45,777 bases of DNA from Candidatus Doudnabacteria bacterium (lineage in GTDB: Bacteria > Patescibacteriota > Doudnabacteria > UBA920 > O2-02-FULL-48-8): positions 1 through 45,777 of the forward strand of contig JACQHB010000005.1 in NCBI GenBank assembly GCA_016199215.1, read 5' to 3'. Shown in pieces: positions 21,434-42,208 of the stretch. The first letter of the stretch is position 1. Every line of letters begins with the position of its first letter. The notes below the pieces were generated by a model. The model made no database searches, was not told the origin of the DNA, and saw nothing but the letters and a program-made list of their open reading frames with translations. A program made the position numbers and the translations under genes.

Positions 21434-22396
21434 TTACCACGGTTTGTCCCAATCAAAACCGCGGCCGAAGTGCCCCCAAGAAGCCGTGTTTGCAAAAATC
21501 GGACGGTTAAGTTTCAACAATTTTTTAATTCCTGCGGGAGTCAGGTCATATTGCTTGCTGATATCCGTTATCTGATATCTACTATCTGATTTGAGGACTT
21601 CCGCTGTTGCCATAACCGGCAAGGGTTTCCCAATCGCGTAAGCCAGTTTTACTTTTACCTCTTTAGCTTTTTTCTTCTTTAAAAGGTCAACCGCTATTTT
21701 GCGGGCCATATAGGCTCCGCTGCGGTCAACTTTCGTGGCGTCCTTTCCCGAAAAACTCCCACCGCCCACGGAAATTTCAGGCCCATAAGCGTCAATCACT
21801 ATTTTACGCCCCGACAAGCCGGAATCCGCGTCAAAGCCGCCGAGAGTCCATTCGCCAGCCGGATTAACAAAATATTCCTCGGACTTAATAAGTTTTTTTG
21901 CAAGCTTCAACAGATCTTTAGTTTTTGAATTTTGAAAAGACGCGACAACAGCCAGGACTTTCTTCTCATCAACGGTCACTTGGACCTTGCCGTCAAACGG
22001 GTAGATTTTATAAATTTTTTGGCACAGTTCGCGCGCGAGATTGTATTCCTGCGGCATAAAATTTTCACTCTCTGCCGTGGCACAGCCAACCATGATTCCC
22101 TGATCCCCTGCTCCGCCCTGATCAACACCGCGAGCGATAAACGGGCTTTGATGAACCGTGTGCAAGTGAACGTGGTAACCCTTCCCAACGACTTTTTTAA
22201 CAACAGCTTCTATGTCAACTTTAGCTTTGCTTGTTATTTCGCCGCTTATAGAAACCCCTTTATGACCTCCCATAACCTCAACCGCCACCCTGGAATTCGG
22301 GTCTTTTTTTAAATAAGCGTCCAGAATGGAATCAGCAATAAAATCGCAAATTTTATCCGGATGCTTTGGGCTTACAAACTCGCAAGTTTTGATCAT
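21434..22396 (-). CDS. metK: S-adenosylmethionine synthetase (short form)
   Basis: TCEFVSPKHPDKICD, GAGDQG, NPAGEW..GG...DSGLSGRKI, GGGSFSGKDATKVDRSGAY, WGHFG. Confidence 0.96.
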   Translation of the reverse strand: MIKTCEFVSPKHPDKICDFIADSILDAYLKKDPNSRVAVEVMGGHKGVSISGEITSKAKVDIEAVVKKVVGKGYHVHLHTVHQSPFIARGVDQGGAGDQGIMVGCATAESENFMPQEYNLARELCQKIYKIYPFDGKVQVTVDEKKVLAVVASFQNSKTKDLLKLAKKLIKSEEYFVNPAGEWTLGGFDADSGLSGRKIVIDAYGPEISVGGGSFSGKDATKVDRSGAYMARKIAVDLLKKKKAKEVKVKLAYAIGKPLPVMATAEVLKSDSRYQITDISKQYDLTPAGIKKLLKLNRPIFANTASWGHFGRGFDWDKPW

Positions 22397-22415
22397 GTTT
22401 AGAAATTAGAAATTT

Positions 22416-22439
22416 AAAAACTTTCCAAAAGGAAAGTTT
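22416..22439 (-). terminator. Riboswitch expression-platform terminator
   Basis: aaactttcc/ggaaagttt stem plus U-run, between aptamer and metK ATG. Confidence 0.65.
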
Positions 22440-22446
22440 AGATCGC

Positions 22447-22628
22447 GTTATCTTTCCCTCTCGGGCTGGATTTGGCACCTTCTTATGTAGTCAGTCGATT
22501 TATCGACTCGGTTGAGCTGATAAATCAGCCCCGAACCAGACACTCCGTGTCGGTACGGGGCAGGCTGACTACGAAAGGGTTGCCGGACGGATCATAAGGC
22601 CAGAACCTTTCCCGTCACTCTTGATATT
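22447..22628 (-). ncRNA. SAM-I (S-box) riboswitch with an 86-nt insertion in P3
   Basis: Minus: ATATCAAGAG..GGGAAAGG..CTGGCC..ATGA...CGGCAACC [insert] GGTGCCAAATCC.GC....GAAAGATAA; upstream of metK; TTGCTT-N17-TATAAT promoter at 22643-22671. Confidence 0.9.
22487..22572. mobile_element. Palindromic element (family C) with GTAGTCAG/CTGACTAC termini inside the riboswitch
   Basis: Internal palindromes agtcgatttatcgact and gctgataaatcagc plus ccccg...cgggg hairpin. Confidence 0.75.
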
Positions 22629-22653
22629 ATTCAATTTTAAATATTATAGATCT

Positions 22654-23220
22654 TTACTCAGGCTTAAGCAATGGGGAAAACTTTTGCCGCAGTTTGGCAA
22701 GCTTGGGATTTATAACAACCTGGCAGTAAGGATTATTATCCTTATTTTTTTCGTAGTAGTTCTTGTGATAATCTTCCGCGATATAAAATTTATCCAAAGG
22801 TCGAAGTTCGGTCACAATCGGAGCATCAAAAATATTTTCTTTTTCTAGATTTGAAATATATTCCTCAGCTTCCCTCCTCTGATCATCATTGGCATAAAAG
22901 ATCACTGACTTGTATTGTTCACCCGCATCCGCTCCCTGGCGATTCATACTGGTTGGATCGTGAAGCGCAAAAAAAACATTCAAAAGGTCTTTGAAAATAA
23001 TAATGGACGGATTAAATTCAAATTTAACAACTTCCACATGGCCCGTCCGGCCGGAGGAAACTTGTTCATAGGTTGGATTAGGGACAGCGCCTCCAGCATA
23101 TCCTGGCAGAACAAAAATCACTCCCCGCAAGCGAAGGAAAATCGCTTCAGTACACCAGAAGCAGCCTCCTCCAAAGACAGCTATTTCTTGCCTAAAAGCA
23201 AACATGCTGAATTTATGCAA
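22654..23220 (-). CDS. msrA: Peptide-methionine (S)-S-oxide reductase
   Basis: FGGGCFWCTEA, GYAGG, YEQVSSG.TGH.EVV, AEDYH..Y, YC..VI.PK. Confidence 0.96.
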   Translation of the reverse strand: MHKFSMFAFRQEIAVFGGGCFWCTEAIFLRLRGVIFVLPGYAGGAVPNPTYEQVSSGRTGHVEVVKFEFNPSIIIFKDLLNVFFALHDPTSMNRQGADAGEQYKSVIFYANDDQRREAEEYISNLEKENIFDAPIVTELRPLDKFYIAEDYHKNYYEKNKDNNPYCQVVINPKLAKLRQKFSPLLKPE

Positions 23221-39999: not shown

Positions 40000-41059
40000 T
40001 TTGTGGCATTAGGTTCTTAATATTTTTGGAAAGTAGTTTCTGCCGCTGGGGATTAAACTTTATGATCGTGATCACTTTAAGAAACTGCTGGGGAATGGCC
40101 TCGTCTTTTTCCAAGACAATGGCCGCATGGGCGTCCTTGAGTATTTTAGCATTTTCTTCCTGATGGCTCCCGGGCATGGGCAAAATAATGGAGGCCTTGC
40201 CAGCGGCGGAAAGCTCCGCTATGGTCGAAAGCCCGGCTCTGGCCACAACAATATGGGCAAGGTTCAAAATAGCGGCATAAGGACCAAATGGGATTAATTC
40301 ATAAGGGTGGTAATTCGGGTGGGTAAAACTGATCAAATTTTTGCCTTTTCCAGTTTGGTGGATCACTTGGTGGGAAGATACCAGGCTTGAAAAAGTTTGG
40401 GCAACAAGCTGGTTGATTTGGGAAGCTCCGGTCGCCCCGCCCAACACCAGCAGAATCGGGAGCTGGTCATGGATGCCAAAAAACTCTTTTTGCGAAAGAT
40501 CGGGTTTTTTGACTTCCGAACGGACTGGATTGCCAACCCATTCGGGAACTGATATTTTCTCCTTTTTAAAAAGACCGGATCCAGAATGAAAATTTTTGGC
40601 AGTCTGTTCGAAGGCCGTGGTGATTGCTGAAGCCATGGGGATAACTAACTTGTTTGCAAGTCCTACTCTCGCGTCCTGCTGGTGAATGACGATTTTGGTT
40701 CCCATCATTTTCCCCACCCAGCACAATGGCACAGCGACAAAGCCTCCCGCGGAAAAAATCAGGTCAGGCCTGAATTTTCTCAAAATTTTCCAGCTGGAAA
40801 CCAGGCTTAACAAAAAAACAAAAACATCCGCTACGTTCATTAAAGAAAAATATCTCCGGAGCCTCGCTGCTCTGATTCCTACAAAATTTATTCCAGTCTC
40901 GGCAACCAAGATTTTTTCCGGCCCATTTTTGGTTCCGACAAATAAAAACTTCACGCCTGGAATTTGCTTTTTTAATTCTTCAGCCACGGCCAAAACAGGA
41001 CTCACCGGCCCGCCAGTTCCCCCGCCCGCCAATAGTATCTTAAACTGTTTTGATCCCAT
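39953..41059 (-). CDS. murG: Undecaprenyl-PP-MurNAc-pentapeptide GlcNAc transferase
   Basis: AGGGTGGPVSP, GGFVAVP, HQQD...GLANK, GNPVR, GGATGA, RAG.STIAE, HQEENA. Confidence 0.95.
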   Translation of the reverse strand: MGSKQFKILLAGGGTGGPVSPVLAVAEELKKQIPGVKFLFVGTKNGPEKILVAETGINFVGIRAARLRRYFSLMNVADVFVFLLSLVSSWKILRKFRPDLIFSAGGFVAVPLCWVGKMMGTKIVIHQQDARVGLANKLVIPMASAITTAFEQTAKNFHSGSGLFKKEKISVPEWVGNPVRSEVKKPDLSQKEFFGIHDQLPILLVLGGATGASQINQLVAQTFSSLVSSHQVIHQTGKGKNLISFTHPNYHPYELIPFGPYAAILNLAHIVVARAGLSTIAELSAAGKASIILPMPGSHQEENAKILKDAHAAIVLEKDEAIPQQFLKVITIIKFNPQRQKLLSKNIKNLMPQNAEDKIASVVAGQLK

Positions 41060-41081
41060 GTAGTCAGCCGATTTATCGGCT
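41060..41081. repeat. Palindrome family C copy abutting the murG start codon
   Basis: gtagtcagccgatttatcggct. Confidence 0.8.
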
Positions 41082-41098
41082 TCGTAGAGGCTTTTTAA

Positions 41099-42208
41099 TC
41101 AGCCAACTACGGAACCGTATAAATTAATAGTTTCTTGTGCTGCCATTTTCCAATTAAAATGCTTTGACCGCGATAACCCCAAGTTCGCCAGCTCTTCCAA
41201 CCGCTTTTCGTTTTTGAGCAAATTTTCTAGCACATCAGTCATATTTTCCAAATTATTCGGATCAAAATATTCCGCGCCCTGGCCCAAAATTTCTCGAAGC
41301 GTTGGTATATCGGAAGAAACAATAGGGACGCCGCACGATGCGGCTTCAAGAGCCGTAAGCCCGAATCCTTCTGACAAAGATGGCAGGACAAACAAGGTTG
41401 CTGCATTATACAAAGCCTGCATATCAGAATCAGAAACCCTGCCAGGGCAAACAATATGATCTGAATGGTTTACGCTTAAAATCTGTTGCTTAATTTCCGG
41501 ATAAAAAGGATCAGGCTCGCCTGCCAATACTAATTGCAGGTCCAGTCCCTTATCAATCATCCGGCTGAAGGCGCGGGCAAGCATTGGGAGATTTTTATAC
41601 CGCCTCCAAACTCCAACATAAAGTATAAAGGGTTTGGATATCCCGAATCTATTGGCTATTTGATCGAAGGCTTCCTGCTTATCCATCATCCTAAACGAAT
41701 CATTTGCCCCTTCGTAAATTGTCACTGTTTTGTCGTCTACATTTCCAAATACTTCCTGGATTTCGTTTTTCGTCCCATTGGAAACGGCGATAATTTTTTT
41801 TGCGGATTTAATCGCGTTCGACAAGACAAAATTATACGCTAGGCGGTGAAAAAAATGGGATTTTTTTCGGCCGGGAAATTTGGAGTGCGTCAAATCATGG
41901 ATTGTGACTATAAAAGGCTTGCGATAAAAAATAGGAACGTTGAAATGCGGAAAATGAACTAAATCCAAATTCTCTTTGTTCAAAACCCGCGGCAGTCTCA
42001 ACTGCTCCGCAACCGAGTAATGAGGAATGCCTGTAATAACAATTTTGCGGTTAAATTTTTTGTAGTCAGCCGATTCATCGGCTCTTCTAAAAAACAAAAC
42101 GTATTCGTTTTTCTTATCCATTTCCAAAATCTTCTGAGACAACTCAAAAATATACCTCGAAATCCCCGACCCCCCTCCCAGCATCCTTAAATCTAATCCA
42201 ATTCTCAT
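41099..42208 (-). CDS. GT4 (GT-B) glycosyltransferase
   Basis: RIGLDLR, VTIHDL, YVGV..RYKN, PSLSEGFGLTALEA..CG.P..SSD. Confidence 0.92.
   Translation of the reverse strand: MRIGLDLRMLGGGSGISRYIFELSQKILEMDKKNEYVLFFRRADESADYKKFNRKIVITGIPHYSVAEQLRLPRVLNKENLDLVHFPHFNVPIFYRKPFIVTIHDLTHSKFPGRKKSHFFHRLAYNFVLSNAIKSAKKIIAVSNGTKNEIQEVFGNVDDKTVTIYEGANDSFRMMDKQEAFDQIANRFGISKPFILYVGVWRRYKNLPMLARAFSRMIDKGLDLQLVLAGEPDPFYPEIKQQILSVNHSDHIVCPGRVSDSDMQALYNAATLFVLPSLSEGFGLTALEAASCGVPIVSSDIPTLREILGQGAEYFDPNNLENMTDVLENLLKNEKRLEELANLGLSRSKHFNWKMAAQETINLYGSVVG
42062..42083. repeat. Palindrome family C copy in frame inside the GT4 gene
   Basis: gtagtcagccgattcatcggct, encoding RADESADY. Confidence 0.75.

Follow-up and report, generated by a model that had tools for sequence, protein, structure and literature searches.

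The window, the whole 45,777-nt stretch of DNA analysed here (contig JACQHB010000005.1 of Candidatus Doudnabacteria bacterium, assembly GCA_016199215.1), carries two neighbouring minus-strand genes, msrA (22654-23220) and a 320-aa metK (21434-22396), and the 257-nt gap between them holds a riboswitch. The metK product is matched by TIGR01034 at E 9.7e-78, with a score of 261.7 bits that lies below the cut-off of 309.4, and the gene is present as a single copy in the assembly. The protein is a short form of MetK (320 aa), and the relatives found for it, all labelled as candidate-phyla-radiation or Patescibacteria groups, share 52-79% identity with it across 296-319 of its residues. By its MetK the genome belongs to the Candidatus Doudnabacteria (Patescibacteria) lineage. 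The gene and the parts of the switch are as follows.

21434..22396, minus strand: metK, S-adenosylmethionine synthetase, 320 aa, with the Pfam S-AdoMet_synt N, M and C domains; the predicted target gene of the switch
22643..22671, minus strand: promoter-like TTGCTT (22671..22666), 17-nt spacer and TATAAT (22648..22643), read by eye
22445..22630, minus strand: SAM-I (S-box) aptamer with P1-P4 and pseudoknot, 186 nt including the insert, RF00162 model positions 1-108
22487..22572, minus strand: insert in the P3 loop, 86 nt, an insert in the Infernal alignment and missing from the same-genus ortholog
22431..22458, minus strand: antiterminator predicted from a prefix fold, GGGAAAG (22458..22452, P4/P1 3' side) with CUUUCC (22436..22431, terminator 5' arm)
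22410..22439, minus strand: intrinsic terminator from a terminator scan, AAACUUUCC-UUUU-GGAAAGUUU followed by a U-tract

The metK leader and its aptamer

A permissive search of 22350-22700 places the SAM-I model RF00162 on the minus strand at 22630..22445 (model positions 1-108, 40.4 bits, E 5.8e-8), and a search of the whole 521-kb genome returns the same aptamer as the sole SAM-I match (E 2e-8). Infernal accommodates one 86-nt insert, which it assigns to the P3 terminal loop at exactly 22487-22572. The gathering threshold that Rfam sets for RF00162 is 44.4 bits, and because the aptamer scores only 40.4 bits with its insert, a standard Rfam search misses it: at gathering thresholds the whole window yielded only a tRNA and no SAM match. 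A preliminary description of the locus had proposed a SAM-I riboswitch at 22447-22628 that carries an 86-nt element in its P3 arm, with promoter, terminator and metK in place, and had warned that covariance searches could miss it. All of this is borne out, with the addition that the switch lies on the minus strand, which had been left unstated; promoter-like boxes (TTGCTT-17-TATAAT) were read by eye, the terminator came from the scan and metK was identified by its three MetK Pfam domains.

The core of the aptamer was examined with the insert set aside, by alignment with 14 relatives (15 sequences in total). All 23 tested pairs form across P1, P2, P3, P4 and the pseudoknot between the P2 loop and J3-4, and 98% of the cells in the alignment are paired, compared with 28-45% for slid controls. 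The pseudoknot (CUGG/CCAG) shows covariation at each of its 4 pairs, and 35 columns are invariant across the 15 aptamers, the window's own included. The P1-P4 four-way junction, the conserved core and the pseudoknot expected of a SAM-I riboswitch are hence all found here. P1 is short, with 4 Watson-Crick pairs and further mismatches in the Infernal alignment, and the outer P2 pair is G-C where the same-genus relative has A-U.

The expression platform and the target in sulfur/SAM metabolism that go with SAM-I are also present, in the form of the terminator, the antiterminator and metK, which begins at 22396. The terminator scan gives a hairpin at 22439..22418 with 9 pairs, a loop of 4 and a T-rich tail, and the antiterminator is the MFE helix of a 210-nt prefix fold, just ahead of synthesis of the terminator 3' arm. 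The same-genus relative has the same antiterminator/terminator design, and the metK start is conserved there as well. At the other end of the leader, the -35 box of the putative metK promoter overlaps the final codons of msrA, and the relative has a comparable putative promoter (TTGTTA-17-TATAAT) at the equivalent position. The promoter of the window is absent from the listing of a consensus scan because its -35 hexamer, TTGCTT, agrees at 3 of 6 positions.

We infer the ON/OFF mechanism of the metK switch from the SAM-I family. On binding SAM the aptamer would lock P1 and hold the GGGAAAG-AUA strand, and with this strand held the CUUUCC-UUUU-GGAAAG hairpin and its U-tract would terminate transcription ahead of metK. 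Without SAM, GGGAAAG would pair with CUUUCC as the antiterminator and metK would be transcribed. Familiar members of the SAM-I or S-box class (RF00162) are the Bacillus subtilis metK and yitJ leaders and the Thermoanaerobacter tengcongensis metF aptamer (PDB 2GIS). With this class the locus shares the P1-P4 four-way junction, the P2-loop/J3-4 pseudoknot, the conserved core, the terminator/antiterminator pair and metK as target, whereas its P3 ends in an 86-nt branched domain rather than a short loop and its score of 40.4 bits is under the curated 44.4.

The insert and its repeat families

The 86-nt insert resolves into four annotated parts.

22487..22508, plus strand: REP unit 1, GTAG head and hairpin (GTAGTCAG TCGATTTATCGA CT), exact match to the family pattern
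22515..22528, minus strand: hairpin of REP unit 2 (CTGATTTATCAG plus CT), with the nested repeat between it and its GTAG head, from doublet comparison
22529..22564, minus strand: nested 'hairpin A' repeat, 36 nt (minus strand CCTGCCCCGTACCGACACGGAGTGTCTGGTTCGGGG), with a 92% identical copy at C12:18126-18162
22565..22572, minus strand: GTAG head (GTAGTCAG) of REP unit 2, from the family pattern and doublet comparison

Read along the plus strand, head 1 (GTAGTCAG) and hairpin 1 (tcgatttatcga) are followed by a spacer (ctcggttgag) and hairpin 2 (ctgataaatcag), then by the nested 36 nt (CCCCGAACCAGACACTCCGTGTCGGTACGGGGCAGG) and the reversed head 2 (CTGACTAC). The ends of the insert, GTAGTCAG...CTGACTAC, give one match in the window, with 0 expected from 100 shuffles. 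A GTAG head beside a palindrome is the signature of REPs, and inverted doublets of such units are REPINs or BIMEs (Di Nocera 2013, PMC3733652; Bertels & Rainey 2011, PMC3116915). Once the nested 36 nt are taken out, what remains of the insert is 50 nt long, two GTAG-headed hairpins that form an inverted doublet of this REP/REPIN type, and an intact sister doublet elsewhere in the same genome (C1:17374-17423) is identical to it at 45 of 50 positions. The hairpin variant TCGATTTATCGA (TCGA) is also found at C1:17402-17423 and, among the matches listed, is limited to this genome. Hairpin A splits REP unit 2 between head and hairpin. As read from these comparisons, the locus is three layers deep, a repeat in a repeat in a riboswitch helix. 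The 86-nt composite was considered as a propagating unit in its own right and rejected, given that the fusion of REP head and hairpin A has no second occurrence in 146 genomes of the order. Neither the insert nor its other copies match an Rfam family.

The nearest public genome, a groundwater MAG of the same genus whose MetK is 79% identical, keeps the empty site. Its gene order is the same (msrA end, promoter, aptamer, terminator, metK), its aptamer is insert-free at 101 nt and 59.9 bits, and in a pairwise alignment of the two leaders its P3 loop shows one clean gap of 85 nt between conserved flanks. In 18 other relatives the aptamer measures 99-121 nt, and the length of the P3 tip varies among relatives. 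Since the orthologous leader of the genus-mate is insert-free, the insertion most likely postdates the split of the two species. This empty site and the sister doublet that shares a genome-specific variant are indirect evidence of REP mobility. Its junction is resolvable only to a few bases because TAG stands at the site in the filled and the empty sequences alike. Most REP copies have a T before GTAG and an A after CTAC (T-GTAG...CTAC-A), and comparison of these copies and of the filled and empty riboswitch sites established neither a target-site duplication nor a defined target motif.

The REP unit, GTAGTYAG-nnGATTTATCnn-CT, has 8 copies in this genome, and its family was found in 57 of the 146 genomes of the order with at most 31 units, where a reversed-pattern control gave 0-1. 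Inverted, head-outward doublets of 50-55 nt with compensatory stem changes occur in many genera; besides the sister doublet, this genome has them at C2:41060-41110 and C1:19247-19297, and 15 loci were recorded in other genomes. The family of the insert thereby shows both dispersed GTAG-headed palindromes and inverted doublets, as REPs do.

Inverted units also flank a 137-aa Y1/HUH transposase on both sides in 8 of 8 genomes inspected (L074-L081, for example L078:245-658, minus strand), at 20-45 nt from both ORF ends in all 8 genes. The transposase carries the motifs PNHVHIIF and NYYEHVIRNE, and its best NCBIfam match is REP_Tyr_transpos, the REP-associated tyrosine transposase (77.4 bits, E 1e-21, against a cut-off of 80). 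Homologs (E <= 1e-15) are present in 21 of the 146 genomes, and their presence tracks repeat copy number, with a median of 8 REP units in genomes with the gene and 0 in genomes without it (p ~1e-8, uncorrected for phylogeny). Judged by protein family and flanking units, this is the REP-RAYT ('REPtron') arrangement in a Patescibacteria order; the literature searched held no published link of RAYT or REPIN elements to Patescibacteria. A cognate RAYT flanked by matching units is found in relatives, and none was detected in this 79%-complete genome (G000) or in the genus-mate (G001). Because its REP unit is interrupted and the RAYT is missing, the inserted element is probably immobile now.

The sole Y1 gene of this genome, C12:9179-9820 on the minus strand, was rejected as the cognate RAYT: it encodes a distant 213-aa paralog (Pfam Y1_Tnp, 42.8 bits) with a different flanking palindrome (GTGGAGG..CCTCCAC). 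Palindromes of that type follow the gene closely on its downstream side, and the N-terminal residues of the protein hint at a further one at the 5' end; the paralog and its palindromes may form a separate repeat system.

Other REP copies in the window lie in and around coding sequence. The doublet at 41060-41110 fills the gap between two minus-strand ORFs, abutting the ATG at 41059 and containing the stop codon of the ORF at 41099-42208. A single unit at 42062-42083 lies inside this last ORF, which is 369 aa long and glycosyltransferase-like, and is read through in frame as RADESADY. Elsewhere in the order, REP doublets of one genome (G046; L045, L046, L058 and L059) are embedded in a longer repeated unit whose flanks, CTCAAAAC...GTTTTGAG, are conserved, which suggests that repeats are nested or combined at a further level.

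Hairpin A (GCCTG CCCCGTACCGAnnC GAA GnnTCTGGTnCGGGG) is a second dispersed repeat, present in 10 of 25 genomes of the family. Copies in the 9 other genomes (L021-L033, around 1501-1540) are 82-87% identical to the nested copy, and the distal stem covaries between GACAC/GTGTC, GAAAC/GTTTC and GACGC/GCGTC. For 6 of 13 copies a tRNA gene is no more than ~100 nt away, and the one in L027 lies inside an apparent broken tRNA 5' half.

Both parts of the locus belong to known kinds, the riboswitch being SAM-I by structure and context and the insert a GTAG-REP/REPIN. The preliminary description had supposed that a selfish repeat landed where it is tolerated, in the variable distal P3, and may alter switching. 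That it is a selfish repeat agrees with the dispersed families (8 units here, up to 31 in relatives) and with the units flanking a RAYT-type gene in relatives, with the refinement that a second repeat is nested in the REP doublet, which makes the element composite. That it landed there as an insertion is matched by the empty orthologous leader with its clean 85-nt gap, and that the site is permissive by the varying P3 tip of relatives and by published, tolerated 'variable insertions' (PMC2258182).

Possible effect of the insert on the switch

Folded on its own, the insert has an MFE of -45.8 kcal/mol (z -7.5), and 0 of 200 shuffles were as stable. An 8-bp closing stem, GUAGUCAG/CUGACUAC, lengthens P3 and leads into a branched fold. 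In the MFE structure of the full leader this end stem stacks on P3 over a small internal loop, and the native P2, P3, P4 and terminator are all present. SAM-I structures hold SAM between the minor grooves of P1 and P3 near the junction, which leaves the P3 tip free. The insert would fold on itself, its GUAGUCAG/CUGACUAC ends extending P3 and joining both P3 strands, and the SAM pocket would therefore be left alone. The insertion was most likely a tolerated, near-neutral event. We think it probable that the locus is an ordinary metK SAM-I transcription-termination riboswitch with a tolerated, nested REP insertion, and on the folding models the best reading of its present state is most likely a SAM-I OFF switch that works, or comes close to working, and bears a neutral passenger.

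The insertion might instead have damaged the switch. While synthesis of the P3 3' strand is delayed, the 5' strand would invade P2, and the misfolding would leave metK constitutive or shift its response to SAM; the locus would then be a recent casualty that has not yet decayed. The insertion is young, being missing from the genus-mate, and in prefix folds of the leader the native P2 is missing from the MFE at all 84 lengths of 66-149 nt, over which the insert is being transcribed, and is never missing when the insert is deleted in silico. The likely cause of this loss is base pairing between GGGAAAGG in P2 and CCUUUC in the P3 strand that still awaits its partner, as a 6-bp GAAAGG/CCUUUC alternative helix; in these prefix folds the P3 5' strand sits on the 5' strand of P2. 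With metK as sole copy, a leader locked OFF should be lethal or strongly counterselected, so that only a leaky or ON broken state would survive. However, a prefix MFE is a noisy equilibrium proxy, and for the naturally insert-free relative, too, the MFE lacks P2 at 35 prefix lengths. P2 is moreover finished before the competing strand emerges, the full-length MFE is native, and the conserved core positions, pseudoknot and terminator are all intact. Folding kinetics may be disturbed by the insert in these models, and because the prefix proxy is noisy we regard a damaged switch as unlikely.

A passenger could also have been recruited, with the REP-derived three-way junction on P3 acting as a protein platform or as an RNase or stability element through which metK would gain a further input or its leader RNA would become more stable. 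Effects of REP hairpins on mRNA stability and on termination have been reported for other bacteria (PMC3733652), and the hairpins of both repeat families keep their pairing through compensatory changes across genera, which implies that the fold is recognised. Recognition of DNA by the transposase alone predicts the same conservation, though, and the insert is a one-off: its REP-head/hairpin-A fusion recurs nowhere else, and no other SAM-I aptamer with this insert was seen in the 146 genomes of the order or in a metagenome scan, which makes co-option very improbable. That scan, for GGCAACC followed by a REP head within 3-10 nt, gave 3 loci, of which 0 had a SAM riboswitch, and a separate metagenome scan for an exact 22-mer of this leader had no match. 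Although the assembly has 16 contigs and is 79% complete, and metagenome data yielded no independent contig that carries this leader, we consider it barely credible that the insert is an assembly artefact of the MAG, such as a palindrome-driven chimera. An artefact needs two exact breakpoints in a loop of 4-5 nt with the aptamer continuing perfectly on both sides, and the insert carries its own substitutions when compared with all other copies in the genome (identity at 45 of 50 positions for the doublet and of 92% for hairpin A), so it was not copied from another contig.

Beyond the tolerated insertion that we favour, a wider generalisation can be framed, which we take to be a long shot. Small hairpin repeats of ultra-small bacteria might preferentially land in or beside hairpin-forming DNA, such as other repeats, tRNA gene edges and the loops of genes for structured RNAs, and mobile repeats would then regularly give rise to 'variable insertions' and expansion domains in riboswitches and other structured RNAs; the three nested layers of this locus would be a case in which the inserted domain measurably retunes co-transcriptional folding.

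Relation to known insertions and repeats

Riboswitches tolerate long, self-folding 'variable insertions', which lower their covariance scores (Barrick & Breaker 2007, PMC2258182). The insert in metK P3 resembles these: it is long, lacks conservation, folds on itself as a stem-loop and occupies a permissive site within a genuine low-scoring match. It differs in that its origin is identifiable, as a REP doublet plus a second repeat, and datable to after the split from the genus-mate. The locus hence offers a concrete, datable origin of such an insertion in mobile REP DNA, with a sister species that keeps the empty site, and through an insertion of this kind standard Rfam thresholds can miss a genome's only SAM riboswitch. 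It is also a natural construct for asking how much of an 86-nt delay within one helix the folding pathway of an aptamer tolerates.

The closest published parallel found is a BOX element between two T-box riboswitches in the trp leader of Streptococcus pneumoniae, for which regulation is reported to be retained (Croucher 2011, PMC3049150). In both cases the transcribed riboswitch leader includes a small mobile repeat with a structure of its own, but the BOX element stands between two complete riboswitches whereas the repeat described here is situated within a single aptamer helix. Selfish palindromes likewise survive as Rickettsia palindromic elements and in-frame intragenic REPs (PMC3733652), at places where their host molecule can accommodate an additional surface domain; there the hosts are proteins, and here the host is a ligand-sensing RNA. 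A published REP inside an aptamer helix was not found in the literature searched on riboswitches with REP or MITE, and the REP survey paper does not mention riboswitches.

With GTAG-REPs, BIMEs and REPINs and their RAYT 'REPtrons' (PMC3733652, PMC3116915) the repeat family shares the unpaired GTAG head, the short palindrome, the inverted doublets, the dispersed copies (some of them intragenic) and, in relatives, the flanked Y1/HUH gene. It differs in its Patescibacteria host, its few copies (8; at most ~31), its AT-rich 5-bp stems and the lack of a cognate RAYT in this genome, and this particular REP copy, an interrupted one, is located within an RNA aptamer. The work thereby points to a REP-RAYT system in Patescibacteria.

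Several expanded SAM-I aptamers of the order score under the Rfam threshold. One, in G046 (L016 1501-1681), is 181 nt long and scores 31.8 bits, with extra hairpins in P2 and P4 that are not REPs. Another, in G033 (L014 1501-1621), has its P3 lengthened by TTACGTGATA repeats, also of a non-REP kind.
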